From Patescibacteria group bacterium (lineage in GTDB: Bacteria > Patescibacteriota > Patescibacteriia > UBA2196), in the NCBI GenBank assembly GCA_028748975.1, contig JAQTPI010000002.1, positions 1 to 49,212 on the forward strand: a DNA stretch of 49,212 nucleotides, given 5' to 3'. The notes under the pieces were generated by a model. The model had not been told where the DNA came from and made no database searches. It was given only the letters and a program-made list of their open reading frames with translations. A program made the translations under genes and the position numbers. This document shows, in pieces, positions 11,721 through 42,427 of this stretch (within the stretch, counting starts at the first letter, position 1; every line of letters starts with the position of its first letter).

Positions 11721-11758
11721 AAAAAGTCCCCCGATAAATATCGGGGGATTTCATTTTT
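11721..11758 (+). terminator. Hairpin after rplI (possible terminator or attenuator)
   Basis: TCCCCCGAT-AAAT-ATCGGGGGA flanked by A and T tracts. Confidence 0.5.
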
Positions 11759-11764
11759 AAAAAT

Positions 11765-13387
11765 ATGAAAAACACCAAATTCATTTTCATTACCGGCGGA
11801 GTTTGCTCGGGACTGGGCAAGGGGATTGCTTCGGCGTCCATTGGCGCGATTTTAAAAGCCACGGAACACAAAGTTTTTACGGTCAAGATGGATCCCTATT
11901 TAAATCCGGATCCGGGCACGATGAGTCCTTTTCAGCATGGCGAAGTTTTTGTGACCGATGACGGCTATGAGGCGGATTTGGACTTGGGACATTATGAAAG
12001 ATTTATTGACGAACCCTTGAGCCGCCAATCAAATTTAACCACCGGCCAAATTTACCAGCAAATTTTAGCGGAAGAAAGAAAAGGAAATTTTTTGGGCAAA
12101 ACAATTCAGGTGGTGCCGCACGTGACTGATAAAATTAAAGAGTTTATTTTTCGCGCGGCAAAAAAATCACAGACAGACTTTCTTTTAGTGGAAATTGGCG
12201 GAACGGTTGGCGATATTGAAGGTGAACCGTATTTGGAAGCTGGACGGCAAATTCACCACGAGCTTGGCGACGAGCAAGTAATGTTTATTCATTTGACACT
12301 GCTGCCATATTTGAAAGCATCCAATGAGTTGAAAACCAAACCGACACAGATGTCGGTCAAAGAATTACAAAGCCGGGGAATTCATCCGGATATGATTTTG
12401 GCGCGGGCGGATTATAAAATTGGCCGCGAGCTTTTGGATAAGATTGCTATGTTTTGCGATGTGAAACCGGAAGCGGTGATTCCGGCGCCGACGATTGAGA
12501 GTATTTATGAAGTGCCATTGAATTTTGAAAAGGCAAAAATATCTGAAATTATTTTTAAAAAATTCGGAATGCCGATTAGAAAATCAAACCTGAAACCATG
12601 GGAAGAGTTGCTGAAAAAAATTAAAAACGGCGGTAAAAAGACAATTACCATTGCTAAGGTAGGCAAATACACGGCGCATGGTGATGCCTATATTTCGGTG
12701 GATGAGGCGCTGAAAGCGGCCGGATTTGCGAACGATGTAAAAATAAAAATTATAGCAGTGGATTCGGAAAAGTTGGAGGAAAATGACGAAAATGAATGGC
12801 AGGTTTTGAAAAAGGCGGACGGAATTTTGGTGCCGGGCGGATTTGGCAAAAGGGGAGTGGAAGGGAAAATTTTGGCGGCCAAATTCGCGCGAGAAAATAG
12901 TGTTCCATATTTTGGGCTGTGTTTGGGGATGCAGATTTTGACAATTGAATTCGCGCGTTGGTGTTTAAAAACCAAAGACGCCAACAGCGAGGAATTTGAT
13001 GAGAAAACAAAAAATCCGGTGATTCACATTATGAAAGAGCAGAAAAAGAAAATGGCGCAAAGCGATTTTGGCGCCAGTATGCGTCTTGGTGCGTATCCTT
13101 GCGTTTTGGCAAAAAATTCCAAATCCTTCGCGGCGTATGGAGCGCCAAAAGTTTCCGAACGTCATCGCCATCGTTATGAATTTAATAATGATTACCGCGA
13201 GAAATTGGAGAAATGCGGTTTGACCATTGCCGGGGTTTCGCCGGACAAAAAATTGGTGGAAATTGTGGAAATTAAGAATCATCCGTGGATGGTCGGGGTG
13301 CAGTTTCATCCAGAATTCAAATCCCGGCCACTTAAGGCACACCCGCTTTTTAGAGAATTTGTGAGGGCGTGTTTGCGAAGAAAATAG
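11765..13387 (+). CDS. pyrG: CTP synthase
   Basis: FITGGVCSGLGKG, GLCLGMQ, QFHPEF motifs. Confidence 0.98.
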   Translation: MKNTKFIFITGGVCSGLGKGIASASIGAILKATEHKVFTVKMDPYLNPDPGTMSPFQHGEVFVTDDGYEADLDLGHYERFIDEPLSRQSNLTTGQIYQQILAEERKGNFLGKTIQVVPHVTDKIKEFIFRAAKKSQTDFLLVEIGGTVGDIEGEPYLEAGRQIHHELGDEQVMFIHLTLLPYLKASNELKTKPTQMSVKELQSRGIHPDMILARADYKIGRELLDKIAMFCDVKPEAVIPAPTIESIYEVPLNFEKAKISEIIFKKFGMPIRKSNLKPWEELLKKIKNGGKKTITIAKVGKYTAHGDAYISVDEALKAAGFANDVKIKIIAVDSEKLEENDENEWQVLKKADGILVPGGFGKRGVEGKILAAKFARENSVPYFGLCLGMQILTIEFARWCLKTKDANSEEFDEKTKNPVIHIMKEQKKKMAQSDFGASMRLGAYPCVLAKNSKSFAAYGAPKVSERHRHRYEFNNDYREKLEKCGLTIAGVSPDKKLVEIVEIKNHPWMVGVQFHPEFKSRPLKAHPLFREFVRACLRRK

Positions 13388-14671: not shown

Positions 14672-15055
14672 ATGTATTCCAAAATCGTTTTGGAACATTT
14701 CCAAAATCCGCACAATCAAGGGAAAATGGAAGAGGCCGACTGCGTCGGCCAGGTTGGCAATCCCGTGTGCGGGGATATTATGAAATTGTATTTGAAAATC
14801 CGCGTGGAAGATAGAGATAAGCCGGTGGAGGAGCGAGTGATTGAAGATATTAAATTTGAAACGCTTGGTTGCGGGGCGGCGATTGCTTCCACTTCCATGC
14901 TGACAGATTTGGTTAAAGGCAAAACAATCGGCGCGGCACTGAAAGTGACCAAGCAAGAAATAGCTGATGCGTTGGGTGGATTGCCGGCAGTTAAGATTCA
15001 TTGTTCGGTTTTAGCTACTGAAGCTTTGGAGGAAGCGGTAAAACAATTAAAATAA
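14672..15055 (+). CDS. iscU: Fe-S cluster scaffold protein IscU/NifU-N
   Basis: HFQNPHN, GNPVCGD, FETLGCGAAIAS, KIHCSVLA. Confidence 0.93.
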   Translation: MYSKIVLEHFQNPHNQGKMEEADCVGQVGNPVCGDIMKLYLKIRVEDRDKPVEERVIEDIKFETLGCGAAIASTSMLTDLVKGKTIGAALKVTKQEIADALGGLPAVKIHCSVLATEALEEAVKQLK

Positions 15056-15061
15056 CGATTC

Positions 15062-15132
15062 GTCATTCCGAGGGAGCGTAGCGACCGATGGAATCTTTAC
15101 TGAAAAGATCCCATCGTTGCGCTCGGGATGAC
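15062..15132. repeat. GTCAT...ATGAC palindromic element (minimal intergenic copy)
   Basis: GTCATTCCGAG...GGAATCT spacer AGATCCC...CTCGGGATGAC. Confidence 0.9.
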
Positions 15133-15147
15133 AGACAATTTACTACT

Positions 15148-15375
15148 ATGATTACAGAAAAAATAAAACAAGAATTAGAAGCCATTCGCCCGCATCTCCA
15201 AATGGACGGCGGGGATGTGGAATTCGTGGAATTTGACGAAGCCACGGGCGTTTTGAAATTGAAATTAACCGGTGCCTGTATCGGTTGCCCCATGAGCCAA
15301 ATGACTTTGCAAGATGGCGTTGGCCGGGCGATTAAGGAAAAAGTGCCGGAGGTGAAAGAGGTGGTGGCGATGTAA
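15148..15375 (+). CDS. NifU C-terminal domain (NfuA-like) protein
   Basis: IRPHLQMDGGDVE...GACIGCPMS (CxxC); start moved to ATG at 15148. Confidence 0.9.
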   Translation: MITEKIKQELEAIRPHLQMDGGDVEFVEFDEATGVLKLKLTGACIGCPMSQMTLQDGVGRAIKEKVPEVKEVVAM

Positions 15376-15473
15376 AAAAAATAATTCAATAATTTTAAAA
15401 CTTTTTAATAAATTGATAAAAATAAAAACGCCCAACCAGTAGTAATGGTTAGGGCGGTACAGATTAATGTCCT

Positions 15474-15605
15474 TTATTTCCCGTTTTTGATTTGATTGAA
15501 AAAGAACATGGCGCCGGCAAGTATAAGACAAAACGCAGTCTGTAAGCTGATTGGAGCTATGAAGGCCCCCGCGCAAATTAAAAGCACGCTGGCTGCTATT
15601 AACAT
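15474..15605 (-). CDS. Small hydrophobic protein, 43 aa (not in ORF track)
   Basis: AAGGAGGGAGG SD, ATG at 15605, MLIAASVLLICAGAF...; upstream TTGACA-17-TATAAT (15684-15656). Confidence 0.55.
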   Translation of the reverse strand: MLIAASVLLICAGAFIAPISLQTAFCLILAGAMFFFNQIKNGK

Positions 15606-15735
15606 AATAGAACCTCCCTCCTTTTTATGTGTGTGGAATTATAGATTGTGTTTTAATTATATCATGCCTAAAAATTTGTGTCAAGCGGCGTTGGATTTTC
15701 GCTTAAGACGGAAATGACACACAAAAAAATCGTAT

Positions 15736-15790
15736 AACCACCCCGGTCCGACATAACGTCGGACCACCCCTCCTTGAAAAGGAGGGGATA
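15736..15790. repeat. CCCCTCC-family double-hairpin element
   Basis: AACCACCCC-GGTCCGAC..GTCGGACC-ACCCCTCCTT-GAA-AAGGAGGGGATA. Confidence 0.85.
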
Positions 15791-15799
15791 ACGACGCGA

Positions 15800-15850
15800 C
15801 GAGATCTCTCGGCTCACAGCGACCCAAAAGGCCGCTCGGGATAAACTACA
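15800..15850 (-). repeat. GTAGTTTATCCCGAG half-element (other copies at 20722-20771 and 29411-29460)
   Basis: Shared GT(A/G)GTTTATCCCGAGCG...GAGCCGAG(A/G)GATCTCG. Confidence 0.8.
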
Positions 15851-15856
15851 AAAATT

Positions 15857-17047
15857 ATGAAACGAATATATTTTGACCACGCGGCGACGACGCCGGTTGA
15901 TAAAAAAGTAATGAAGGCGATGAAGCCGTATTTTTGCGATGTCTTTGGCAACCCGTCTTCACTCCATTCTTTTGGCCAAGAAGCGATGAAAGCAGTGGAC
16001 GAAGCGCGCAACAAGGTTGCTAAGTTTTTGAATTGCGACCGGGAAGAAGTAATTTTTACCAGCGGAGCGACCGAGGCAAATAACCTTGCAATACGAGGGG
16101 TACTGAAATCAGAAATTAGAAATCAGAAATCAGGAACAGACAATAAACTACATGTTATAACTACAGCGTTTGAACATCCGGCGGTTTTAGAAACGGTGAA
16201 AGATTTGGAAAAATCTGGTTTAATCGAAGCGAGCTATGTGATGCCGGGCGCTGATGGAATAGTGAAAACTGAAGATATTGAGAAAGAAATCAGAGATAAC
16301 ACAATTTTAGTTTCGGTGATGTATGTGAATAATGAAATTGGAACGATTCAGCCAATTAAAGAAATTAGCGAAGTTATCAAAAGAATGAATGAGGGCCGGC
16401 CGAATAAAATTTTATTTCACATCGACGCGGTGCAAGCGGCACTTTATTGCGAGATGAAAGTTGGGGAATTGGGCGTGGATTTGCTTGCCATGTCCGGACA
16501 TAAAATTTACGGGCCGAAAGGCATTGGCGTTTTGTATGTTAAAAAATCAGTAAAATTAAAACCAATCCAAACTGGCGGGCACCACGAGTTTGGACTTCGC
16601 GCGGGAACTTTGAATACGCCGTTAATTGCTGGTATGGGTCGGGCAGTAGAATTAATTAAAAAAAGAAACACCAAGAAAGTGGCGGAATCGCGCGATTATC
16701 TTTGGACTAAATTGCAAAGAAATATTTCCGGAATTAAATTGAATGGCGAGATGGTGCGCCGAGTGCCCAGTAATTTGAATGTCAGTATTTTGGGAGTGGA
16801 AGGCGAGGCACTTTTGCTTGGACTGGATATGGAAGGCATTGCCATTTCCACCGGTTCGGCCTGTTCTTCGGGGTCCTTGGAGCCATCACATGTTTTGATG
16901 GCGATTGGTTTAAGCCATGAGGAAGCGCACGGCAGTTTGCGGATTACTTTGGGCGAAGAAAACAATGAAAGCGAATGCGATGAATTGATAAAAAAATTAA
17001 CGCCCTTGGTGGAGCGTTTTAGGCAAATGGCGCCGAAAACAGAATGA
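15857..17047 (+). CDS. iscS: Cysteine desulfurase (IscS/NifS group I)
   Basis: YFDHAATTP, SGHKIYGPKG (PLP Lys), STGSACSSGS. Confidence 0.95.
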   Translation: MKRIYFDHAATTPVDKKVMKAMKPYFCDVFGNPSSLHSFGQEAMKAVDEARNKVAKFLNCDREEVIFTSGATEANNLAIRGVLKSEIRNQKSGTDNKLHVITTAFEHPAVLETVKDLEKSGLIEASYVMPGADGIVKTEDIEKEIRDNTILVSVMYVNNEIGTIQPIKEISEVIKRMNEGRPNKILFHIDAVQAALYCEMKVGELGVDLLAMSGHKIYGPKGIGVLYVKKSVKLKPIQTGGHHEFGLRAGTLNTPLIAGMGRAVELIKKRNTKKVAESRDYLWTKLQRNISGIKLNGEMVRRVPSNLNVSILGVEGEALLLGLDMEGIAISTGSACSSGSLEPSHVLMAIGLSHEEAHGSLRITLGEENNESECDELIKKLTPLVERFRQMAPKTE

Positions 17048-25946: not shown

Positions 25947-26957
25947 ATGTGGTTTACTCCCAAAATTATTAAAAAAATTGAGAAAGCGGGCTTAATCGGC
26001 CGCGGGTGCAACAACTTTCCCGTGGCGAGAAAATGGGAAGCAGTAAGAAAGGCCCGGGGCAAAGAGAAGTTTGTGATCTGCAATATTTCCGAGTCCGAAC
26101 CCGGGGTTTTTAAGGACCGCCATATTTTGCGCCATCACCCAGAAAGAGTAATTGACGGCATGATTTTGGCTATGGATACTGTTGGCGCGAAAAATGGATT
26201 TATTTATTTAAATCCGGAATATTTTACCGAATTTAATGCCAAACTGCGAGAAATAATTGATTTGAAAATCGGTGGAATCGGCATGATTGAACTTTTTGAA
26301 AAACCTTTTCACGACTACATCGGCGGGGATGAAACCGCGCTTTTGAATTCGCTGGAAGGCAAGCGGGTGGAGCCGAGATTGAAACCGCCCTATCCGGTGA
26401 ATTTTGGTTTGGAGGGCAAACCCACCTTGATTAATAATTGTGAAACTTTTTATGCCATAAGTTTGATTGCTGAAAACAAATACAAAAATACCAAATTTTA
26501 TTCTCTGTCCGGCGCGGGCGTGGAAACAGCGGTAAAAGAATTGCCGGTGGACATTACTGTTAAAAAAATGCTCCAGGAATTCGACCACGAGCCGAGTGAA
26601 AAATATTTCTATCAAGTCGGCGGAGGAGCGGCTGGCACTTGCTATAATTTCAAGCAATTGAATAGAAAATTTGACGGCTTGGCTTCAGTTATAATTTATA
26701 GTATGGAAGAATCGCCTAAAAATGTGGTGATGAAGTGGCTGAATTTTTTTGAAGACGAATCCTGCGGACAGTGCGTGCCCTGCCGCGAAGGAACCTATCG
26801 TTTGAGGAATTTGATGAGAAAATATTTTGAAACAGAAAATTTAGATAAAGAAATTTTTGACGATTTGGTTTTCACTTTGGAAAATACTTCCTTTTGCGCG
26901 TTGGGCAAAGTTTCCACCAATGCGGTTTTGAGTTATTTGAAAAACGTGAGGAAATAA
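25947..26957 (+). CDS. NuoF/HydB-like FMN/NADH-binding subunit (short form)
   Basis: GRGCNNFP, NISESEPG, YIGGDETALLNSLEG, ESCGQCVPCREG...SFCALG (one 4Fe-4S). Confidence 0.88.
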   Translation: MWFTPKIIKKIEKAGLIGRGCNNFPVARKWEAVRKARGKEKFVICNISESEPGVFKDRHILRHHPERVIDGMILAMDTVGAKNGFIYLNPEYFTEFNAKLREIIDLKIGGIGMIELFEKPFHDYIGGDETALLNSLEGKRVEPRLKPPYPVNFGLEGKPTLINNCETFYAISLIAENKYKNTKFYSLSGAGVETAVKELPVDITVKKMLQEFDHEPSEKYFYQVGGGAAGTCYNFKQLNRKFDGLASVIIYSMEESPKNVVMKWLNFFEDESCGQCVPCREGTYRLRNLMRKYFETENLDKEIFDDLVFTLENTSFCALGKVSTNAVLSYLKNVRK

Positions 26958-26968
26958 AAAACTGTCTC

Positions 26969-27127
26969 CTATGAGACAGTTTCCGCCGGACAGTTTGTTG
27001 CCATCCATGTGATGAGAAGAGGGGATGTTCCCACGACGAACGGGGCGGCCGCTCCTTTTGTAAGAATTAACAGGCCCCATACGGCGATGGCTGTGACCCA
27101 GACTGCAACCTTTTCTCTTGTTTTCAT
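26969..27127 (-). CDS. Small membrane peptide, 52 aa
   Basis: AAGGAG SD, TTGACA-17-TATACT promoter (27190-27162). Confidence 0.55.
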   Translation of the reverse strand: MKTREKVAVWVTAIAVWGLLILTKGAAAPFVVGTSPLLITWMATNCPAETVS

Positions 27128-27294
27128 TTTTGTTTTTCTCCTTGTTTGTGATTGTGTGTTTAGTATATCATATTTAAAAATTATTGTCAAGCGATTTTTG
27201 GGGATAATTTTCGGAAAATGCCAAATTTTGGCTAAGATTAGCGGAAATTTAGCCACGAATTAATGCGAATTTAGGGCGAATTTTGCGAATAATT

Positions 27295-27410
27295 ACAACC
27301 CCTCTGTTCCGCTGTTGCGGAACACCTCCCCTTCGAAAGGGGAGGATAGCGACGCGGTTATCCCCTCCTTTCGAAGGAGGGGTGGCCGATAGCAATCGGC
27401 CGGGGTGGTT
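27295..27410. repeat. Pair of oppositely oriented CCCCTCC-family elements
   Basis: 27295-27348 and 27358-27410; similar pair at 42304-42427. Confidence 0.85.
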
Positions 27411-27463
27411 GTAATTTGCGTAAAATCGCGTATAAACTCGCGTGGAATCGCGATTATAAAGAA

Positions 27464-29407
27464 ATGAAAAAAATAAAATTCACAATCAACGGCAAAGAAT
27501 ATTTCGCGAAAAAAGGCGAGACGGTTTTGGATGTGGCTTTGCGCGAAAAAATTGAAATTCCACATTTGTGCAAGCATCCGGATCTGAAAATCAAAGGCAA
27601 CTGCCGGATGTGCTTGGTGGAGGCAGGCGGCCAAATTACCACCGCTTGTTCCACCGAAGTTCTGCCCGATTTGACAATCAAAACCAACACTAAAGAAGTG
27701 GAGCGCGGACGAAAAATAAATTTGGAATTGATTTTTTCCGAACACATTGAAAAATGTCCGACCTGCCTTTACCAAGACAATTGCACAATTTTAAAATATG
27801 CCGCCAAATATAATGTAAAAATCGCGCGGTTTGAAGACCGCAAGAAAAATTTTCCGGTTTGGCAGTTTTCCGATTCCATCCAATTTGATTCTTCCAAATG
27901 TATTGATTGCCGCAATTGCGAAGAGGTTTGCCGCGAAAAACAAGCGTGCAGTTTTTATGAAATTACGGAAGATAAGGGGGAAGACCAAATTATAAAACCC
28001 AAAGGGGAAGCAAACGGAAATCAGAAATTAGAAACCAGAAATCAGGGGGTAGACTTGTTAAAAAACGATCCGAATAAATTTGACTGCACCTATTGCGGGC
28101 AGTGCGTGACGCATTGTCCGGTCGGCGCCATTGCCGGTGTGTCGCACTGGCAGGCAGTGGAAAAATTATTACAAAATAAAAATGGCAAGGTTTTGATAGC
28201 GGAAATCGCGCCGTCAATTCGTGTTTCCATTGGCGAAGAATTCGGACAAGATTACGGCAAAATTATGACGGGACAATTGGCCGCTTCCATGAAAGCGCTT
28301 GGTTTTGATTATGCTTTTGATGTTAATTTGGGCGCGGATTTTACCACCTATGAAGAAGCTAAAGAATTGGTTAAATGGATTACCGAAGATAAACCGCGGC
28401 CGATGTTCACTTCCTGCTGTCCAGCTTGGGTGAAATTCGTGGAATTTTTCTATCCCGAATTTATTTCGCATTTAACTTCTGCCAATTCCCCTCACATGTG
28501 TTCCGGCCCGGTGATTAAAACTTTTTTTGCCGATTATTTGAAAAAAGACCCGCGCGATATTGAAATTGTTTCCATTATGCCTTGTACTTCCAAAAAACAC
28601 GAAATTGGTTTAGAAAAGCATCGAATTGATTTGGGCTGGTGTCTGGAACGGCTGGACTTGCCAAATATCGCCAGTGTTTGCCAAAGCCGCGGCGGATTGG
28701 CGGGGATTAAAGTGCCGGCGGTGGACCATATTTTGACCACGCGCGAATACGCATTTCTTTTGCATAAAAATAAAATTGATTTGCCAAATTTGAAACCAAT
28801 TGATTTGGACAGGCCACTCGGCGTGTCTTCCGGCGCCGGCGCGATTTATGGCGCTTCGGGCGGGGTCATGGAGTCCGCGCTCCGCAGCGCCGATTATTTT
28901 TTCCGTGTTTTAGACGAAACCGGTTCACTTGACCCGGTCATTAAGGGTGAAAATTATAAATTAAAGAAGAAAAGATTTTCTAAAATTTCTCAAAGCCGGA
29001 TTGAATTCAGAGAAGCGCGGGGACAGGCGGGAATTAAAACCGCACGCGTGAAAGTTGGGGGCAGAAAGTTAAATATCGCGGTGGCCAATGGCTTGGGTAA
29101 TGCCAAGAAAATTTTGGAAGATTTGAAAGCCGGCCGCGTCAAATATGATTATGTGGAGGTGATGGCCTGTCCCGGCGGCTGTATTGGCGGCGGAGGACAG
29201 CCGATTCCGACCAACGCGGAAATCAGAGCGAAGCGAGCGGCGGCTTTATATGAAATTGATAAAAATTTGCCAGTGCGCACGGCGCATGAAAATCCCAGTG
29301 TTTTGGAGGTTTATAACAAATATTTCAAAGGCGATGAAGAATTAATTGAGCATGTTTTGCATTCTAAGTTTAAAGTAAAGGAGCGCGAAGGTTACAAAGA
29401 GGTGTAG
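27464..29407 (+). CDS. hydA: [FeFe]-hydrogenase catalytic subunit (group A, M3-type architecture)
   Basis: 2Fe-2S (HLC..GNCRMC..TAC), HxxxCxxCxxxxxC, two 4Fe-4S (CIDCRNC, CTYCGQC), H-cluster motifs TSCCPAW, MPCTSKKHE, EVMACPGGCIGG; start moved to ATG at 27464. Confidence 0.93.
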   Translation: MKKIKFTINGKEYFAKKGETVLDVALREKIEIPHLCKHPDLKIKGNCRMCLVEAGGQITTACSTEVLPDLTIKTNTKEVERGRKINLELIFSEHIEKCPTCLYQDNCTILKYAAKYNVKIARFEDRKKNFPVWQFSDSIQFDSSKCIDCRNCEEVCREKQACSFYEITEDKGEDQIIKPKGEANGNQKLETRNQGVDLLKNDPNKFDCTYCGQCVTHCPVGAIAGVSHWQAVEKLLQNKNGKVLIAEIAPSIRVSIGEEFGQDYGKIMTGQLAASMKALGFDYAFDVNLGADFTTYEEAKELVKWITEDKPRPMFTSCCPAWVKFVEFFYPEFISHLTSANSPHMCSGPVIKTFFADYLKKDPRDIEIVSIMPCTSKKHEIGLEKHRIDLGWCLERLDLPNIASVCQSRGGLAGIKVPAVDHILTTREYAFLLHKNKIDLPNLKPIDLDRPLGVSSGAGAIYGASGGVMESALRSADYFFRVLDETGSLDPVIKGENYKLKKKRFSKISQSRIEFREARGQAGIKTARVKVGGRKLNIAVANGLGNAKKILEDLKAGRVKYDYVEVMACPGGCIGGGGQPIPTNAEIRAKRAAALYEIDKNLPVRTAHENPSVLEVYNKYFKGDEELIEHVLHSKFKVKEREGYKEV

Positions 29408-29571
29408 CCAGTGGTTTATCCCGAGCGATCCAAAGTACTTGGGGGAGCCGAGGGATCTCGGTTGAAGGTAATAAGTAACTAGTAATAAGTAATAAGGGCG
29501 ACAAAAAAATAAAATCGCCCCAGTTTGCAACTGAAGCGATAAGAGCGAATGTTTTTTGTAGTTTTGAAAAA

Positions 29572-29766
29572 TTAGGTTTCTAATACTTCGGTCGCACAAT
29601 GAGTACAATATTTGTCTTCGGGTCTTAATTCTTTTCCGCAAGTTTTACATTTTGGATAAATTATTTCTTTAAGCCTTCTGCCACAGCGATTACAGAAAAT
29701 AGCACCAAGACCAAATAACGTATCGCCATACCTTGTGCAAGCTCGATTTTCGCAAACTTTTGACAT
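29572..29766 (-). CDS. Double zinc-ribbon protein, 64 aa
   Basis: Four Cys pairs; GGGAG SD. Confidence 0.7.
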   Translation of the reverse strand: MSKVCENRACTRYGDTLFGLGAIFCNRCGRRLKEIIYPKCKTCGKELRPEDKYCTHCATEVLET

Positions 29767-29857: not shown

Positions 29858-30448
29858 ATGTCAATAGCTACAACTTTATCCAAAATTCGAGTTGGTTATC
29901 TGATTAAATTTATTTTACTTCTGGCGCTGGCTACTGGCGCGCCGATTTTGGGGATTCATTCGCAGTGGCTTACCGGACCGATTGTTAATATGGCTTTAAT
30001 TTTAAGCGTGTTTTTGGTCGGCGTGCGCGGGGCGGTTTTAATCGGGCTTTTGCCTTCCACCATCGCACTTGGCACGGGACTTTTGCCAGCGGCGCTCGCA
30101 CCCATGGTGCCTTTTATTATTATTTCAAATATAATTTTAGTATTTTGTATTTCTTTTTTCCGTCATTCCGAGGGAGGTCCGATGAATATCGGACCGACCG
30201 ATGGAATCTCGGTTGAAGACCCCATCGCTTCGCTCGGGATGACGAATAAAAAATACTGGCTTGGTTTACTTTTTGCCGCCGGCCTGAAATTTCTTTTCCT
30301 TTTCCTAACTTCCGGTATCGTGATAAAATTACTGTTGAATCAAAAGCTCGCGCTCCCCGTGGCACAAATGATGAGCTGGCCCCAGTTTTATACCGCGCTT
30401 ATTGGTGGAATTTTAGCGTTTGTGGTTTTGAAAATTTTAAAAAAATAA
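29858..30448 (+). CDS. ECF transporter S-component-like membrane protein with an in-frame element insertion
   Basis: QWLTGPIVNMAL...PFIIISN...KF.FLF...QFYTALIGG pattern of S components. Confidence 0.75.
   Translation: MSIATTLSKIRVGYLIKFILLLALATGAPILGIHSQWLTGPIVNMALILSVFLVGVRGAVLIGLLPSTIALGTGLLPAALAPMVPFIIISNIILVFCISFFRHSEGGPMNIGPTDGISVEDPIASLGMTNKKYWLGLLFAAGLKFLFLFLTSGIVIKLLLNQKLALPVAQMMSWPQFYTALIGGILAFVVLKILKK
30161..30244. repeat. GTCAT...ATGAC element, 84 bp, in frame in the ECF S-component gene
   Basis: Translates as RHSEGGPMNIGPTDGISVEDPIASLGMT. Confidence 0.9.
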
Positions 30449-30514: not shown

Positions 30515-30772
30515 ATGGACAAAAATCTCAAACTCCAAATTTTGGAGCAAATGTCTGGTCTTGTCACCGCCGGACTAGGGTTGGTGGCGGCTTTGGCCTG
30601 GAACGAAGCCATTAAGAAAATGTTTGAAAAAATCTTCGGCAGCCAGTCCAATTTAATCGCCATGTTCGGCTACGCGGTTTTGGTCACGGTTTTGGTGGTT
30701 ATACTTTCCATGCGCATTGGTAAATTGGTGGCGAAGTTGAAATCCACGAATAATGCTAATGAGGGCGAATAG
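30515..30772 (+). CDS. Small two-TM protein (DUF5654-like)
   Basis: LVTAGLGLVAALAWNEAI...YAVLVT motif. Confidence 0.75.
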   Translation: MDKNLKLQILEQMSGLVTAGLGLVAALAWNEAIKKMFEKIFGSQSNLIAMFGYAVLVTVLVVILSMRIGKLVAKLKSTNNANEGE

Positions 30773-31169: not shown

Positions 31170-32450
31170 ATGTCAAATCCGAAAATTAAGTCCATAAAAG
31201 CAATTAAAAATCTGAAAAATAAAACAGTGCTTGTGCGCTGTGATTTTGATGTTCCGTTGAAACAACAAACAACAAACAACAAACAACAAACGACAAAAAA
31301 GTCGTCAGTTGTAAGTTGTAAGTTGTCGGTTGCTGACGACTCGCGGCTGCGGGCGGCAACTCCGACGATAAAATATCTTTTATCAAAAGGCGCGAGAGTG
31401 GTTTTGATGGGACACCTTGGCAGACCGGGCGGAGTGGTGAAAAAGGAATTGTCACTTTTGCCGGTGAAAAATCGATTGGGAAAATTACTTGGTGAGAAAA
31501 TAAGTTTTATATCTGACGAGATCCCATCGCTCGCTACGCTCGCTCGGGATGACGGTCGGTTGATAATGTTGGAAAATCTGCGCTTCAATCCCGGCGAGGA
31601 GAAAAATGACCCTAAATTTGCCAAGAAATTGGCGAAATTGGGCGATATTTATGTTAATGAGGCCTTTGCCGTCTCGCACCGAAGCGCGGCTTCGGTGGAC
31701 GCCATAAAAAAGTTTTTGCCATCTTATGCCGGTTTGAATTTGGAGCAGGAAATTTTACATCTGTCGGCGGTTCTAAACAAACCGCAAAAACCAATGGTGG
31801 CCATCATCGGCGGCGCGAAGATTGAAACTAAACTGCCAATGATCAAACAATTTTTGAAATCCGCGGATTACATTTTAATCGGCGGGGGAGTGGCGAATGA
31901 TTTTTTGAAAGCAAGGGGTTATGAGATTTATGGGTCGTTGGTGGACGATGATTATATAAATGAAGCCGGTAAAATATTAAAGAAATCAGAAATCGGAAAT
32001 CAGAAATCAGGAGAAGCAAAGTTAATTTTGCCAATAGATGTTGTTTGGTCTGACAATAAAATCAGGAGTTTATCCGCCGGAGCGTCTAAAGGGACGCCGG
32101 GGAGCGCAGGCGGAAAAACTCCAAAAATTTTGGATATCGGGCCGAAAACAATTTGGTTGTTTAGTGGTATAATTAAGAAAGCCAAGACGATTGTCTGGAA
32201 CGGTCCCATGGGCTATTTTGAAGACAAAAAATTTGCAACGGGCACAGAGAAAATAGCTGAAGTAATTTTGGCTAATAAAAAAGCGCAAAGAATAATTGGT
32301 GGTGGTGAAACAGGGGAAGTAATACAAAAAATAATCAGAAATCAGAAATCAGAAATTAGGAAAAATATTTTTATTTCCATTGGTGGTGGCGCCATGCTAG
32401 AGTATCTTGGAGGTAAAAAATTACCCGGATTGGATAAATTAATTAAATAG
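31170..32450 (+). CDS. pgk: Phosphoglycerate kinase (four repeat-derived segments)
   Basis: VRCDFDVP, HLGRP, LENLRF, GGAKIETK, WNGPMG, GGGET, SIGGGA. Confidence 0.96.
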   Translation: MSNPKIKSIKAIKNLKNKTVLVRCDFDVPLKQQTTNNKQQTTKKSSVVSCKLSVADDSRLRAATPTIKYLLSKGARVVLMGHLGRPGGVVKKELSLLPVKNRLGKLLGEKISFISDEIPSLATLARDDGRLIMLENLRFNPGEEKNDPKFAKKLAKLGDIYVNEAFAVSHRSAASVDAIKKFLPSYAGLNLEQEILHLSAVLNKPQKPMVAIIGGAKIETKLPMIKQFLKSADYILIGGGVANDFLKARGYEIYGSLVDDDYINEAGKILKKSEIGNQKSGEAKLILPIDVVWSDNKIRSLSAGASKGTPGSAGGKTPKILDIGPKTIWLFSGIIKKAKTIVWNGPMGYFEDKKFATGTEKIAEVILANKKAQRIIGGGETGEVIQKIIRNQKSEIRKNIFISIGGGAMLEYLGGKKLPGLDKLIK

Positions 32451-32624: not shown

Positions 32625-33914
32625 ATGAAAAAATTTGTTATAGAAAAAATCACCGCTCGTGAAATTCTTGATTCGCGCGGCAACCCGACAGTGGAAACCA
32701 CGGTGATTTTGGATTGCGGAATTAAGACTAAAGCCTCGGTGCCTTCCGGCGCTTCCACTGGGGAGCATGAAGCGTTTGAATTGCGCGATAATGACAAAAA
32801 AAGATACGGCGGATTGGGAGTTTTGAAAGCGTGCGCCAGCGTGGAAAAAATCAGCCGTAAATTAAAAGGCATGAATATTTTGGAGCAGAAAAAAATTGAC
32901 GAAGCCATGATTGAACTTGATGGTACGGATAATAAATCTAAATTCGGCGCCAACGCAATCTTATCAGTATCATTGGCTTGCGCCCGCGCCGGAGCACTGG
33001 TGGCGGGAGTAGAACTTTATGAATATTTGCGGAAGATTTACGAATTACGAATTACGAATTACGAATTACCAATCCCAATGTTCAACATTTTTAACGGCGG
33101 CAAACACGCGGACACAAATTTGAATTTGCAGGAATTCATGATCGTGCCGATTGGCCTTAAGAATTTTTCCGAGCAACTTCGCGCGGGGGCGGAAATTTTT
33201 CATGCTTTGGGCGAGGTCTTGAAAAAAAACCATCTGGATACTGATGTGGGCAATGAGGGTGGTTACGCGCCAAACATTGATAACACTATGCAGGCGTTTG
33301 ATTTAATTATGGAAGCGATTGTAAAGGCCGGCTATAAACCTGGCGCGGAAGTGGCACTGGCGCTGGATGTGGGCGCTTCGGAATTATATGATGAAGAAAA
33401 ACGGCTTTATACTTTTGATTTAGATGATTATTATCTTATGGCTTCGCAATTAATTTCCCTTTATCGCGATTGGGCGACAAAATATCCGATTATTTCCATT
33501 GAAGACGGGCTCGCGGAAAATTCTTGGGAAGATTGGGAGGAATTGACCAAAGAATTTGCGCGTTTCAAACCGCACGCCAGTTTTGATAAAATGTTACTCG
33601 TGGGCGATGATTTTTTTACTACCAATGCCAAACGGCTGGAAGCCGGCGTAAAAAGAAGCGCGGGCAACGCGGTAATTTTGAAACCAAACCAGATTGGGAC
33701 TTTGTCAGAGGCGATTGAGTTTGCCAAAGTTGCCAGAGAAAATAATTATACGATTGTGGTGAGCCACCGTTCCGGTGAAACCTGCGATGATTTTATTGCG
33801 GATTTGGCGGTGGCGATTAGTTCTGAGTTTGTAAAATTCGGGTCGCTGTCGAGGGGGGAGAGGGTAACGAAGTATAATCGGCTGTTGGAGATTTTTTCAG
33901 TAGTGTTATTCTGA
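32625..33914 (+). CDS. eno: Enolase
   Basis: REILDSRGNPTVE, VPSGASTG, ILKPNQIG, SHRSGET; stop supplied by an element half. Confidence 0.97.
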   Translation: MKKFVIEKITAREILDSRGNPTVETTVILDCGIKTKASVPSGASTGEHEAFELRDNDKKRYGGLGVLKACASVEKISRKLKGMNILEQKKIDEAMIELDGTDNKSKFGANAILSVSLACARAGALVAGVELYEYLRKIYELRITNYELPIPMFNIFNGGKHADTNLNLQEFMIVPIGLKNFSEQLRAGAEIFHALGEVLKKNHLDTDVGNEGGYAPNIDNTMQAFDLIMEAIVKAGYKPGAEVALALDVGASELYDEEKRLYTFDLDDYYLMASQLISLYRDWATKYPIISIEDGLAENSWEDWEELTKEFARFKPHASFDKMLLVGDDFFTTNAKRLEAGVKRSAGNAVILKPNQIGTLSEAIEFAKVARENNYTIVVSHRSGETCDDFIADLAVAISSEFVKFGSLSRGERVTKYNRLLEIFSVVLF

Positions 33915-35000: not shown

Positions 35001-36668
35001 ATGAAGAAAAAAATAAAAGACAAAAATAACCACCCCTCCGCCAGCTGGCGGACCCTCTCCTTAAAAAGGAGAGGAGGAAAAAAGCAGCCGCCGGTAGTTT
35101 TGGCGATTTTGGATGGCTGGGGAATTAATCATGATTACATTGGTAACGCCATTACGCGCGCCAAAACCCCGACCTATAAAATGCTTTTGGAGAAATTTCC
35201 CAATACCAAACTGCGCGCTTCGGGCCGAGCAGTTGGTTTGCCGCCAACTCAAGACGGCAATTCGGAAGCAGGGCACCTGAATTTGGGCGCTGGTCGGGTG
35301 GTGGAGCAGGATACGGTCATTATCTCAAAATTGATTACCGCCGGAACTTTTTTTAAGAATCCGGCACTGAAAGCGAGCATCAAACAGGTGAAAAAGTATA
35401 AAAGCAAGGTCCATCTCATGGGCTTGCTTTCGGGCTGGGAATCCGCCCATACTGACCCTGATCATCTTTTGGCGCTGTTAACTTTTTATCGCCAAGAAGG
35501 AATAAAAAAGGTTTATTTGCATCTTTTCACCGATGGTCGCGATTCTTTTCAATATGGCGCCTTAAAATTTTTAAAACAATTAGAAAATGAATTTAAAGAC
35601 GGGGAGGTGATCGCGAGCGTCACGGGCCGTTATTACGCCATGGACCGGACGAAAAAATGGGAACGCACGGAGGCGGCTTACAATGCGCTGGTTTTGGGCA
35701 AAGGGCAATATTATGCCAAAAGCGCGGAAGAAGCCATCAAACGGGCCTATGACCGCGACGAGACCGATGAATTCATTTTGCCGACCGTGATTGTTAAAGA
35801 TGGCAAATGTGACAAAAGAGGAATTTGCATCAGCGGCGAACCAATCGCCAAAATCGAAGACAATGACGCGGTGGTGTTTTTCAATTTGCGGTCCGACCGT
35901 TCGCGGCAATTGTCCAAAGTTTTTGTCCAAAAGAATTTTAATGATCTGAACCCCGGTGCTTTCAAACGCACCAAGGTTTTGAAGAATTTACTTTTTGTTG
36001 CCATGACTGATTTTGGCCCGGATTTGGACACCATTCTTTCTATTTCACCCTCGCAGGATGTTAAAGAAACTTTGCCCATGGCGCTGACTGGTTTGCGCCA
36101 GCTCTACATCGCGGAGACGGAAAAATATGTTCACGTGACTTATTTCTTTAATGGTGGTTATGCCGAACCGGTTAACAAGGAAGAACGTTTAATGGTATCC
36201 TCGCCCGATGTTTCTTCTTATGATAAAATACCAGAAATGTCAGCTAAAGAAATTACCGATATAATTTTAAATGATTTGAAGAATAATAAATATGATTTCA
36301 TTTTGGTAAATTATGCCAACCCCGATATGGTTGGCCACACCGGCAATTTGGCTGCCGGGATTAAAGCCTGCGGCTTTGTTGATGGTTGTTTAGGGAAACT
36401 TTATGAAGAAATTAAAAATAAAAAAGGGATGCTTTTGGTGGTGGCGGACCATGGCAACGCGGAAGAAATGATTGATGAAAAAACCGGCGAGATTGATACC
36501 CAGCACTCCTCTTATCCGGTGCCGTTTATTATTGCTGATCTGCGTGATGGCGTGAAAAGATATAAATTAAGAAAGGATGGAATTTTGGGCAACGTGGCGC
36601 CGACAATTTTGGATTTGCTAAATAAAAAGAAACCAAAGGAAATGACGGAGGGTTCTTTGGTTTTGTAG
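35001..36668 (+). CDS. gpmI: 2,3-bisphosphoglycerate-independent phosphoglycerate mutase, copy 1
   Basis: ILDGWG, GNSEAGH, FTDGRD, GRYYAMDR, ETEKY, NPDMVGHTG, ADHGNAE. Confidence 0.95.
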   Translation: MKKKIKDKNNHPSASWRTLSLKRRGGKKQPPVVLAILDGWGINHDYIGNAITRAKTPTYKMLLEKFPNTKLRASGRAVGLPPTQDGNSEAGHLNLGAGRVVEQDTVIISKLITAGTFFKNPALKASIKQVKKYKSKVHLMGLLSGWESAHTDPDHLLALLTFYRQEGIKKVYLHLFTDGRDSFQYGALKFLKQLENEFKDGEVIASVTGRYYAMDRTKKWERTEAAYNALVLGKGQYYAKSAEEAIKRAYDRDETDEFILPTVIVKDGKCDKRGICISGEPIAKIEDNDAVVFFNLRSDRSRQLSKVFVQKNFNDLNPGAFKRTKVLKNLLFVAMTDFGPDLDTILSISPSQDVKETLPMALTGLRQLYIAETEKYVHVTYFFNGGYAEPVNKEERLMVSSPDVSSYDKIPEMSAKEITDIILNDLKNNKYDFILVNYANPDMVGHTGNLAAGIKACGFVDGCLGKLYEEIKNKKGMLLVVADHGNAEEMIDEKTGEIDTQHSSYPVPFIIADLRDGVKRYKLRKDGILGNVAPTILDLLNKKKPKEMTEGSLVL

Positions 36669-36739
36669 TTTTTCTTTCGCCACCTTTTTTAGTAAAAGGT
36701 GGCGCCAAAAAGCGCCGCCAGCAAAAAAGTGATTCCTAC

Positions 36740-36965
36740 GCCACTTTCTTTGGACAAAGAAAGTGGCTGAAAGAAACTGGCGAGCGAGCTGCGCGTTAGA
36801 GAAAATCTAAGGCTCGCCCTCGCTAATTTCCGAACTCAGCCGAAGAGAATAATCTGCTGATTATTCTTTCGGCTTCAAACAGGCGGAAATTTTTTCTACT
36901 GCGGTAGAAAACCGCTCCGTCTCGCCTTGATTTTCTTGCTAACGCTCCGCTAGGCTCGCAGCTAC
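36740..36965. ncRNA. ~225-nt structured repeat, copy 2, preceded by an extra P1-like hairpin at 36679-36712
   Basis: Aligns with 22512-22737. Confidence 0.55.
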
Positions 36966-37030
36966 GAAGTCGCAATAATCGCAGTAATTCCTTGAGTTTT
37001 GTTTTAATGCTTTAATGTTAAAATGCTAAT

Positions 37031-38617
37031 ATGAACGACAATTTACAACCTAAATTTCCCAAGCCAGTGGTGCTAGCCATTCTTGACGGCTGGGGCATTG
37101 CGGCGCCGTCGGTGAGCAATGCCATTTCACAGGCCAAGACGCCGAATTTTGATAAATTGACCGCCAATTATTTTTGTACCACCCTTCAGGCCTCGGGTCT
37201 TTCCGTAGGTCTGCCTTATGGTGAAATGGGCAATTCGGAAGTGGGCCATTTGAATTTGGGCGCGGGCAAAATTGTTTATCAAAATTTGCCGCGCATCAAT
37301 CGCGCCATTTTGGACGGTGAGTTTTTTGATAATGTTATTTTTTTGAAAGCTTTGGCGCAAGTTAAAAAACAAAAAAGCAAATTGCATCTTTTGGGACTAA
37401 TTTCCACTGGTGGCGTGCACGCCTCGCTTGACCATCTTTACGCGCTTTTGGAATTGGCTAAAAAACAGAAGATAGAGAAAGTTTTTGTTCATTGTATTTT
37501 GGATGGTCGTGACATGGCCTATAATTCGGGCCAGGGATTGTTGCAAGAATTAAAAAATAAAATGAAAGAAATCGGGGTGGGCGAGATTGCTTCGGTCGTT
37601 GGCCGATTTTATGCCATGGACCGCGACAATCATTTTGAAAGAACGGAAATTGCTTACCGGCTTTTAACCGACGGGTCGGCGGAAAAAAGAACCAAAGATG
37701 TTTTGCAGTCGGTGCAGGAATTTTATGATACTAAAATTTATGATGAAGAAATGAAACCGATTGTGGTGGTTAATGAAAATGATGAGCCAATTGGCAAAGT
37801 TGAGAATAAAGACGCGGTTATTTTTTTTAATTTTCGGCCAGATCGCGCGCGGCAATTGACCAAGGCTTTCGTTTTGCCTGGCTGGGAAAAATTCACCAGG
37901 ATTTATCTGCCGGATCTGTATTTTGTAACCTTGACACAATATGAAAAACAATTGCCTTCGGAAGTGGCTTATCCGCCGGAGACGGTGAAAGAAACCTTGG
38001 CGCAGGTTTTAAGCGAGCAGGGTTTGAAACAGCTGCGCCTGGCAGAAACGGAAAAATACGCGCATGTCACCTATTTTTTTAATGGCGGAAAAGAGGAAAA
38101 ATTGGTTGGCGAGGAAAGAGAAATGATCCCGTCTTTGCGCGTGGAGTCATACGCGGAAAAACCAGAAATGTCGGCCCTCACCATTAAAGAACGGGCGCTG
38201 AAAGAGATAAATGCCAAAAATTTTGATCTGATCACGCTTAATTTTGCCAATCTGGATATGGTGGGGCACACCGGCGATATGAAAGCGACCATTAAGGCGA
38301 CGGAAATAGTTGATAAATGTTTGGGTGAATTGGCAGCGGCAACTTTAGCGGCTGGCGGTATTTTAATTGTTACTGCTGACCATGGCAACGCGGAAGAATT
38401 GATTAATACTAAGACCGGGGAAATTGATAAAGAGCATTCATGCTCGCCGGTGCCGTTTGTTTTAGTTGGTGAAAATTATAAAACACATTCGGAAGGGGGA
38501 GTGATTAATTTGTCGCTGTTGACGCCGGCTGGAGTTTTGGCTGATGTGGCGCCGACGATTTTGAAAATTATGGGATTGGAGCAGCCGAAGGAGATGACAG
38601 GACGGAGTTTGGTGTAA
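37031..38617 (+). CDS. gpmI: 2,3-bisphosphoglycerate-independent phosphoglycerate mutase, copy 2
   Basis: ILDGWG, GNSEVGH, GGVH, LDGRD, ETEKYAHVT, NLDMVGHTG, ADHGNAE. Confidence 0.96.
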   Translation: MNDNLQPKFPKPVVLAILDGWGIAAPSVSNAISQAKTPNFDKLTANYFCTTLQASGLSVGLPYGEMGNSEVGHLNLGAGKIVYQNLPRINRAILDGEFFDNVIFLKALAQVKKQKSKLHLLGLISTGGVHASLDHLYALLELAKKQKIEKVFVHCILDGRDMAYNSGQGLLQELKNKMKEIGVGEIASVVGRFYAMDRDNHFERTEIAYRLLTDGSAEKRTKDVLQSVQEFYDTKIYDEEMKPIVVVNENDEPIGKVENKDAVIFFNFRPDRARQLTKAFVLPGWEKFTRIYLPDLYFVTLTQYEKQLPSEVAYPPETVKETLAQVLSEQGLKQLRLAETEKYAHVTYFFNGGKEEKLVGEEREMIPSLRVESYAEKPEMSALTIKERALKEINAKNFDLITLNFANLDMVGHTGDMKATIKATEIVDKCLGELAAATLAAGGILIVTADHGNAEELINTKTGEIDKEHSCSPVPFVLVGENYKTHSEGGVINLSLLTPAGVLADVAPTILKIMGLEQPKEMTGRSLV

Positions 38618-42175: not shown

Positions 42176-42303
42176 CTTTCACCTCCCCTTATTTTGTTGT
42201 TTTTTGGTCTAAATAAGCCAGATTTGGTTGGTCGTTTGTGGATAAATTTTATTATCTATTTCAATTATAGCATGTTTATTTTTTTGTGTCAAATGTCCGT
42301 TGG

Positions 42304-42427
42304 TTATCCCCTCCTTTCGAAGGAGGGGTGCGAGCCAGCAGGCGAGTGGGGTGGTTGTGGTTTGTATTTTTTTACAACCCCTCCGTTCCGTTGCTACGGA
42401 ACACCTCCCCTTCGAAAGGGGAGGATA
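42304..42427. repeat. Pair of CCCCTCC-family elements
   Basis: 42304-42356 and 42374-42427, near-identical to the 27295-27410 units. Confidence 0.85.

Follow-up and report, generated by a model that had tools for sequence, protein, structure and literature searches.

[FeFe]-hydrogenases that depend on NADH and do not bifurcate have been characterised as Hyd1ABC of S. wolfei and HydAB of S. aciditrophicus (PMC7311640, PMC5626996), and NADH-driven H2 formation is feasible below ~60 Pa H2 (PMC7311640). The C-terminal clusters of the flavoprotein subunit HydB are conserved in all characterised bifurcating enzymes (PMC9499530), and Losey et al. (2020) described positions of this beta subunit that separate the non-bifurcating NADH-dependent enzymes from the bifurcating ones (PMC7311640). 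The bifurcating signature comprises Ala or Glu at Tm-232, Met at Tm-234, a Phe near the flavin and a GGPSG motif in the SLBB region (PMC7311640); the non-bifurcating signature comprises Thr or Ser at Tm-232, Lys, Ser or Ala at Tm-234, and Tyr, with neither GGPSG nor extra Fe-S domains. The locus described here lies on a 49,212-nucleotide stretch from a Patescibacteria group bacterium (contig JAQTPI010000002.1 of assembly GCA_028748975.1), referred to in its full length as the window, and pairs a short NuoF/HydB-like flavoprotein (HydB') with a hydrogenase subunit (HydA):

25947..26957, plus strand: hydB', encoding a 336-aa NuoF/HydB core with a flavin mononucleotide (FMN)/NADH domain, an SLBB-like region and one N3-type 4Fe-4S site, and without the NuoE-binding N-terminus or extra Fe-S domains
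27464..29407, plus strand: hydA, encoding a 647-aa M3-type [FeFe]-hydrogenase with a 2Fe-2S, a His-ligated 4Fe-4S and two further 4Fe-4S clusters, an H-domain with motifs L1, L2 and L3, a small-subunit-like C-terminus and three clade-specific insertions

We consider it probable that this locus encodes a HydC-less, two-subunit, non-bifurcating, NADH-linked [FeFe]-hydrogenase for glycolytic redox balance at low H2. The pair was compared with a family set of 48 loci from the candidate phyla radiation (CPR) and locus L128, with flanks of 10 kb, while 76 canonical NuoF loci served as controls and as a source of seeds. That the host is a CPR bacterium, first judged probable from the letters of the window, is backed by the names under which homologues are recorded (Patescibacteria, Kuenenbacteria, Falkowbacteria). 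It is also backed by a CPR-like gene content, with DUF4012 and PEGA proteins, the ATPase and platform proteins of a type IV pilus, SecDF, enzymes of lower glycolysis and a NifU_N-NifU-NifS cluster. A HydC-less HydA/NuoF pair in CPR was not found described in the freely searchable literature; the main survey of CPR metabolism covers NiFe enzymes only.

A trimmed NuoF-type flavoprotein

In the 336 residues of HydB', Pfam recognised PF01512 (Complex1_51K; residues 11-171, 2.4e-32) and PF10589 (NADH_4Fe-4S; residues 260-335, 3e-19), and no others. Among solved structures, the protein aligned end to end with core regions only, namely residues 181-549 of the 626 in T. maritima HydB and residues 52-402 of Aquifex NuoF. 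Consequently, both the N-terminal thioredoxin-like 2Fe-2S domain and the C-terminal ferredoxin domain are absent, and the sequence-only reading, which had described a 336-aa partner with one 4Fe-4S site and both terminal domains missing, is upheld by Pfam and by the structure alignments. The first ~45 residues of NuoF are missing as well, and the chain stops directly after the N3 helix bundle, without the bifurcation-type C-terminal 2x[4Fe-4S] domain. The N3 ligands C273, C276, C279 and C317 are invariant across the HydB' family. An AlphaFold2 (AF2) model of HydB' reached a predicted local distance difference test score (pLDDT) of 91.3 and a predicted template-modelling score (pTM) of 0.89; Foldseek aligned it to A. 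woodii HydB, Aquifex NuoF and T. maritima HydB with TMq values of 0.85-0.90 and a probability of 1.0, and the modelled fold can confidently be called NuoF-like. The short architecture is shared, as nearly all of the best 120 matches to HydB', which are 45-91% identical to it, carry both domains in 319-390 aa, two of them being partial; the CPR family itself comprises proteins of ~325-365 aa. Ratios of non-synonymous to synonymous substitution (dN/dS), calculated against the closest long relative (L089) and rough because dS is near saturation in this comparison, were 0.08 for hydB', 0.09 for hydA, 0.10 for enolase and 0.19 for phosphoglycerate kinase (PGK). Purifying selection on both hydrogenase genes is strong.

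The 76 canonical NuoF/HydB proteins were scored with a hidden Markov model (HMM) of the HydB' family, and the best were short HydBs of 385-412 aa (249-271 bits). These best non-CPR relatives come from hydC-hydB-hydA operons of Bacteroidales, Ignavibacteriota (Melioribacteraceae, Stygiobacter) and Phycisphaerae metagenome-assembled genomes (MAGs); the short-HydB loci are L018, L019, L030, L032, L037, L041, L048, L069, L075 and L076. They lack the C-terminal clusters and GGPSG and carry T, K and Y at the signature positions. Compared with them, the CPR proteins have lost ~30-35 N-terminal residues, a loop of 10-18 residues, 11 residues after the NNxET helix and ~6 in the SLBB linker, while NADE has changed to N(V/A/I)SE and GAYxCGEE to (H)DYxGGEE. 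The window HydB' has V at Tm-232, K at Tm-234, Tyr within (H)DYxGGEE and GGGAAG instead of GGPSG, the K and the Tyr being nearly invariant across the family. It thus lacks the bifurcating signature and agrees with the non-bifurcating one except for T/S at Tm-232 and the gamma (NuoE-like) module. The earlier proposal of a minimal NADH-linked, non-bifurcating enzyme stands insofar as all bifurcation-linked modules are missing; its yardstick, however, had been the long bifurcating HydB only, and short HydBs already exist. Within the loci compared, what sets the CPR pair apart is the complete loss of the HydC/NuoE module together with the further trimming. Locus L013 has a HydC-HydB fusion, and in Bacteroidota and Stygiobacter MAGs a hydCBA operon with a long, bifurcating-type HydB and one with a short, non-bifurcating-type HydB lie a few kb apart on the same strand (L032, 846-5061 and 9425-13052; L048, 848-5107 and 9426-13010).

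Around the flavin site, the sequence of HydB' departs from the references. The Gly-rich loop reads GRGCNNFP, as against GRGGAGFP or GRGGGGFP in the references, and does not conform to the canonical GxGGAGFP; the NADE motif likewise departs from its canonical form and reads NISE. HydB' might therefore have lost its flavin and NADH chemistry and act as a one-cluster Fe-S adaptor or scaffold, or use another cofactor or donor, next to a ferredoxin-dependent (A1-like) fermentative HydA. We regard this as unlikely. It draws on the clustering of the changes at the FMN site (GRGGAG to GRGCNN, NADE to NxSE, GAGAYxCGEE to xHDYxGGEE and NNVET to NNCET), on loop residues 20-22, which form the only stretch of at least three residues below pLDDT 50 in the AF2 model, and on a score of 222.9 with the NCBIfam nuoF_fam model, far under the curated cut-off of 558.65. 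However, most motifs of the NADH/FMN region, including the equivalent of Aquifex E95, are invariant or nearly so across proteins of 40-90% identity: HydB' retains E49-S50-E51 (corresponding to Aquifex E95-S96-E97), FKD, Y124, GG(E/D)ET, KPP(Y/F)P and NNxET, and E49 and E51 are invariant in a 35-sequence family alignment. The loop itself varies within the family (GRGCNNFP, GRGCGTFP, GRGCCNFP, GRGGAGFP, GRGGACFP and others), and sister subclades retain the canonical GRGGAGFP in the same architecture. Moreover, Cys21 of the loop covaries with Cys165 of NNCET (61 C/C, 38 G/V and ~19 mixed among 118 sequences), both positions lying within FMN-site motifs of the NuoF fold; this is consistent with a pocket that is being maintained, either by compensated packing or with a thiol pair, and it, like the dN/dS of hydB', argues against a loss of function. 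The altered loop reported earlier is thus real, but it characterises a subclade, varies together with a second Cys and is not peculiar to this genome.

The hydB'-hydA module and its missing partners

The open reading frame (ORF) of hydA was listed from a TTG at 27416, and the start that matches the homologues is the ATG at 27464, which gives 647 aa. Pfam identified Fer2_4, the His-ligated NADH-G_4Fe-4S_3, two Fer4 domains, Fe_hyd_lg_C (1e-77) and Fe_hyd_SSU (2e-14). The H-cluster motifs L1, L2 and L3 read FTSCCPAW, MPCTSKKHE and EVMACPGGCIGGGGQP, respectively, and were scored with the patterns TSCCPxW, MPCxxKxxE and ExMxCxxGCxxGxGQP. The three H-cluster motifs and the full set of M3 accessory clusters noticed at first sight are hence confirmed by both motifs and domains. 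Among 33 partner HydAs of the family, L3 was kept in all and, by a strict pattern, L1 in 30 and L2 in 26, and the Cys/His patterns of the accessory clusters were found in 32-33. HydA scored higher with the NADH-type NCBIfam model A6 (568 bits) than with the clostridial ferredoxin type (437 bits), and higher against T. kivui HydA1 (415 bits; 8a6t_A, the closest solved structure by sequence) than against CpI (326 bits). It stayed below the curated NCBIfam cut-offs (387.6 against 405.95 for TIGR02512, 568 against 765 for A6 and 437 against 900 for the clostridial model), and its alignments to these models are interrupted by the three clade-specific insertions.

The pairing of the two genes recurs throughout the family. 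Wherever a family locus extends more than ~1 kb downstream (37 of 37 loci), and likewise in L128, hydA follows hydB' on the same strand; the gap is at most 230 bp in 22 of the 37, and in L084 (HydB' 62% identical) and L128 the end of hydB' shares 4 bp with the beginning of hydA. The conserved occurrence confirms hydB'-hydA as a CPR module that is not peculiar to this genome. Its surroundings are also conserved, and in the window comprise:

14672..17047, plus strand: Fe-S assembly genes upstream of the module (NifU_N 14672-15055, NifU 15088-15375, NifS 15857-17047)
31170..32450, plus strand: PGK, a conserved downstream neighbour by synteny
32625..33914, plus strand: enolase, likewise syntenic
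35001..38617, plus strand: two tandem paralogues of cofactor-independent phosphoglycerate mutase (iPGM), at 35001-36668 and 37031-38617

Two loci, L084 and L096, share the gene order of the window (S41 protease, L9, CTP synthase, NifS, hydB'-hydA, PGK, enolase, two iPGM genes and Fpg), and Pfam also lists NifU_N and NifU for L084. PGK, enolase and iPGM lie downstream in ~19 loci, while the gene for glyceraldehyde-3-phosphate dehydrogenase (GAPDH) stands immediately upstream in six loci of a more distant subclade, 39 bp away in L006. The adjacency to glycolysis that had been noted for the window alone therefore holds across the clade. As for the mutases, the two paralogues are ~43-45% identical to each other's orthologues, and the duplication is kept in L004, L084, L086, L096 and L103.

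A module mainly devoted to H2 uptake, in which environmental or host H2 would reduce NAD+, would be in keeping with the in vitro reversibility of non-bifurcating HydAB (PMC7311640), with H2 to NAD+ being the exergonic direction and with the H2-rich conditions that landfill and subsurface habitats can offer. Against it, the operon context is glycolysis (GAPDH, PGK, enolase), which is a source of NADH, and neither the window nor the flanks examined showed a respiratory or biosynthetic sink that consumes NADH. CPR bacteria are, in addition, regarded as fermenters with few NADH sinks, and we hold uptake as the main function to be quite improbable.

Genes for HydC and for the maturases HydE, HydF and HydG were not detected by Pfam scans of the window ORFs of at least 110 aa and selected smaller ones. 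A phmmer search with HydG and HydE seeds, confirmed above the NCBIfam cut-offs, found no maturase in six-frame translations of the window and the 48 family loci (597 kb), and the absence of HydF from the window is based on the Pfam scans alone. A weak HydE-like match in L089 (8242-9654) was rejected, as the gene belongs to a glycan cluster and encodes a radical SAM enzyme that binds B12. As hydEFG are often unlinked, their absence from a 49-kb window and from 10-kb flanks says little about the genome. The lack of maturases could nevertheless be taken to mean that the hydrogenase is catalytically dead and kept for sensing or for electron transfer without the 2Fe subcluster, which we consider very improbable. 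Most archaeal (DPANN) genomes with [FeFe]-hydrogenases also lack HydEFG, but artificial maturation yielded active enzyme from maturase-less archaea, and maturation by some other route is suspected (PMC11216029). The retained H-cluster ligands and motifs of the partner HydAs and the low dN/dS of hydA speak against a dead enzyme, as do the limited reach of the flanks and a TM1266-like hydrogenase-system gene that follows hydA in L001, L002, L006 and L099, though not in the window.

The contrast is sharper for HydC. An HMM of NuoE/HydC, built from 30 seeds of at most 215 aa each that adjoin canonical NuoF genes, matched 74 of the 76 canonical NuoF loci and none of the 48 CPR loci or the window in the six-frame translations (E<=10), and Pfam found no NuoE-like sequence within the HydB' chain itself. 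The contrast with canonical systems is strong, and flanks of 10 kb stop short of genome-wide proof. The earlier statement that HydC/NuoE and HydE/F/G are missing from the window is accordingly supported by every search made. In Aquifex the E95-S96 peptide is positioned between FMN and cluster N1a, for which a role in limiting reactive oxygen species has been proposed (PMC6560083); if N1a acts in this way, loss of NuoE is plausible in a strict anaerobe. That the pair belongs to an ordinary bifurcating HydABC whose hydC and extra Fe-S partners are encoded elsewhere is the least credible alternative, since, although the closest solved relatives of HydA are the HydA subunits of bifurcating complexes, GGGAAG faintly resembles GGPSG and the search was confined to 10-kb flanks, HydB' itself lacks the C-terminal 2x[4Fe-4S] and N-terminal 2Fe-2S domains, has K rather than M at Tm-234 and Y rather than F, has lost N-terminal residues that its nearest HydC-partnered relatives possess, and comes from a family in which hydC adjoins none of the loci.

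With no C-terminal 2x[4Fe-4S] bridge, no N-terminal 2Fe-2S domain and no HydC, the enzyme would be unable to bifurcate in the manner of HydABC/Bfu. The enzyme is therefore expected to work like the non-bifurcating NADH-dependent hydrogenases of syntrophs, which is feasible only at low H2 with H2 consumers nearby. NADH made by GAPDH would bind to HydB' and pass a hydride to FMN, single electrons would proceed to the N3-type 4Fe-4S cluster (C273/C276/C279/C317), cross to the 2Fe-2S and then the 4Fe-4S clusters of the NuoG-like N-terminal module of HydA, and reach the H-cluster, where protons would be reduced to H2. Here we infer complex formation, the use of FMN and NADH and the catalytic direction, as well as the membrane-protein role discussed below. 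DNA of the window was found in landfill metagenomes, and the record names of at least three relatives refer to activated-sludge metagenomes; the need for low H2 agrees with a methanogenic habitat such as a landfill.

Several observations weigh against the assignment as an NADH-linked, non-bifurcating enzyme. The residue corresponding to NuoF D94 is Ser throughout the HydB' family, and in combination with the change of the FMN-phosphate loop to GRGCNN and the low AF2 confidence at residues 20-22 this makes flavin binding presumptive. The residue at Tm-232 is V or I in the CPR family (also M, N or T) and V in the window, and fits neither published class. The genes are separated here by 506 bp with an antisense minigene and a repeat, which makes co-transcription in the window uncertain. 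HydA is presumed to be active in vivo, a remote hydC or some other partner may be encoded beyond the 10-kb flanks, and no RNA runs containing the locus were found.

If the NADH-linked reading is correct, the 647-aa HydA and the 336-aa flavoprotein would form the smallest natural NADH-coupled [FeFe]-hydrogenase, with fewer parts than any characterised. An NADH site of the NuoF type would then be able to feed a NuoG-type chain of clusters without the NuoE/HydC 2Fe-2S module, which bears on the debated role of N1a and on the minimal and specific needs of bifurcation. CPR fermenters would gain a direct route from GAPDH-derived NADH to H2 and, as this route runs only at low H2, would be tied to H2-consuming neighbours. 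Context-based classifiers that infer bifurcating group A3 from a HydB beside a HydA would assign this widespread CPR clade wrongly, and a compact two-gene NADH-to-H2 module would be attractive for engineering.

Intergenic insertions, repeats and the adjacent membrane protein

The space between hydB' and hydA, and the region after hydA, contain the following:

26957..26984, minus strand: hairpin directly 3' of the hydB' stop, terminator-like for the antisense minigene, with no T-run on the plus strand
26969..27256, minus strand: antisense ORF of 95 aa from a GTG, more likely a 52-aa minigene with one transmembrane (TM) helix at 26969-27127
27293..27412, plus strand: 120-nt GC-rich multi-hairpin dispersed repeat resembling REP/MITE elements, with the near-identical palindromes CCTCCCCTTCGAAAGGGGAGG and CCCCTCCTTTCGAAGGAGGGG, inserted upstream of hydA
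29858..30448, plus strand: 196-aa membrane protein with six TM helices and a fold like that of energy-coupling factor (ECF) S-components, a frequent third member of the module

The antisense gene and two repeats described earlier between hydB' and hydA are thus present, but they are not conserved there in relatives and not part of the system. The minigene has a promoter-like site (TTGACA-17-TATACT at 27190-27162); as a candidate subunit the antisense ORF was rejected, since neither Pfam nor NCBIfam recognised it and the closest relative, L089, has no equivalent, and by these comparisons it is probably an insertion outside the hydrogenase system. The 120-nt element folds with a minimum free energy of -83.2 kcal/mol (z -9.0), its modules recur at 42302-42427 and 15735-15790, and a search of Rfam with the intergenic hairpin element gave no credible match, only a microRNA model at 31.6 against 230 bits. 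Landfill runs show a 20-fold depth spike at this element. In landfill contigs, depth rises at both intergenic elements flanking hydA (27210-27551 and 29433-29603) to up to 242x and 547x as compared with ~12x in the flanks, and a joint 27194>27359 in two landfill runs suggests a variant without 164 bp. The spiking elements are high-copy repeats with population heterogeneity.

The material separating the two genes in the window is missing from L084 and L096, and it is not kept in the 78%-identical L089, which instead has a GIY-YIG gene (11742-12080) and a different antisense ORF. Elsewhere the slot is filled by a DUF4202 gene, a HIT-like gene or a multi-TM protein of ~250 aa (L004 11254-11697; L086 11038-11610; L005-L007; L002), or by nothing. 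These genes, the GIY-YIG gene included, vary by locus and were rejected as conserved partners. As its contents are variable and unconserved, the slot is an insertion hot spot within an otherwise conserved operon and outside the enzyme.

Further repeats were observed across the window. A GC-rich palindrome, CCCCTCCTT-N4-AAGGAGGGG, occurs between genes at 27362-27382, 42308-42328 and 15767-15787 and inside an iPGM gene at 35054-35074, as well as inside the hydA of relatives (L084 11566-11586; L089 12797-12817). Within coding genes it lies in frame, and in the relatives' hydA it encodes PLL(L/I)KEG, placed in an F-cluster-domain loop that is hypervariable; by analogy it is reminiscent of Rickettsia palindromic elements. 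In the window the same hypervariable loop holds a run of the heptamer GAAATCA (28017-28044). Such runs, of 3-4 copies with 21 nt preserving the frame, are found in coding genes only, the others being in NifS (16105-16132) and PGK (31982-32009 and 32331-32358), with eight overlapping matches against 0.01 expected. Long intergenic repeat pairs of 81-96% identity lie at 17866-17971/18417-18522, 22509-22755/36737-36983, 21200-21260/22452-22512 and 13398-13451/14001-14054, and the same set includes an inverted pair at 38730-38792/43214-43276. The window is thus unusually repeat-rich for a small genome, which may explain the insertions that split operons compact in relatives.

The membrane protein follows hydA in ~20 family loci at 40-70% identity by tblastn (L001, L002, L086 and others), and in L128 hydB', hydA and the membrane-protein gene form a tight three-gene operon. 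Its family yielded 259 matches, the named ones all from CPR, labelled 'iron hydrogenase' by NCBI and sometimes 'riboflavin transporter' by JGI. The AF2 model (pLDDT 80.5) has six long and two short helices, and the top eight Foldseek matches are all ThiT/RibU S-components, with a probability of 1.0, TM-scores of 0.52-0.69 and weak E-values of 0.03-0.17. Pfam PF12822 is precomputed for some relatives and gave no match on the window protein, and no ABC ATPase was found in the scanned ORFs of the window. A second membrane protein, of the DUF5654 family (85 aa, 30515-30772), sits between the S-component-like gene and PGK, with the same placement in L089, L094, L103 and L115. The most economical role for the protein after hydA would be to take up a cofactor of the vitamin type, such as riboflavin for FMN. 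It resembles by description, rather than by homology comparison, the DPANN 'hyd6TM', an uncharacterised protein of 4-6 TM helices beside group A [FeFe]-hydrogenases (Greening et al. 2024, PMC11216029): both are small multi-helix membrane proteins conserved beside hydA in genome-reduced symbionts, and the CPR protein models as an ECF S-component. The dependence on a host-derived cofactor suggested earlier is speculation, for which a conserved S-component-like protein next to hydA gives a concrete handle. A reading in which the protein parallels hyd6TM and brings in a cofactor from the host or the community, in its boldest form a precursor of the [2Fe] subcluster with which these episymbionts would activate the minimal two-subunit NADH hydrogenase without HydE/F/G, is a very long shot.

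Comparison with known hydrogenases and complex I

The nearest characterised counterparts are the enzymes of S. wolfei and S. aciditrophicus, which likewise combine an M3-type HydA with a NuoF-like flavoprotein devoid of the C-terminal bifurcation clusters, and share the Lys at Tm-234, the Tyr near the flavin and the absence of GGPSG. By analogy, the ferredoxin-independent conversion of NADH to H2 at low H2 that they perform would be expected for the CPR enzyme, and the S. aciditrophicus enzyme also consists of two polypeptides only. S. wolfei, however, encodes the gamma module separately as HydC, and in S. aciditrophicus it forms the N-terminal part of a fused HydB (residues 15-152), whereas the CPR enzyme has none; its beta subunit is, in addition, ~50-70 residues shorter than in this type, with changed surroundings of the FMN site. 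The short-HydB operons show the same order of hydB before hydA and a HydB that is a NuoF core only. They differ in that hydC is always directly upstream, and their HydBs have the canonical GRGGAGFP, NADE and GAYxCGEE together with an N-terminal stretch and three loops missing from the CPR proteins.

The bifurcating HydABC of T. maritima, A. woodii and T. kivui (group A3/Bfu) share the NuoF-NuoG-like wiring and the HydB core fold (8a5e_B, TMq 0.89), but have HydC, the N-terminal 2Fe-2S domain of HydB, the C-terminal 2x[4Fe-4S] bridge, GGPSG and Met234, all of which the CPR enzyme lacks. Finally, NuoEF(G) of complex I (Aquifex aeolicus NuoEF, Thermus Nqo1/2/3) is alike in fold, in cluster N3 and in the motifs of the NADH/FMN region, including that of the E95-S96 peptide; it differs in having NuoE with N1a and in its partner, which is the quinone-reducing arm in complex I and a hydrogenase in the CPR pair.

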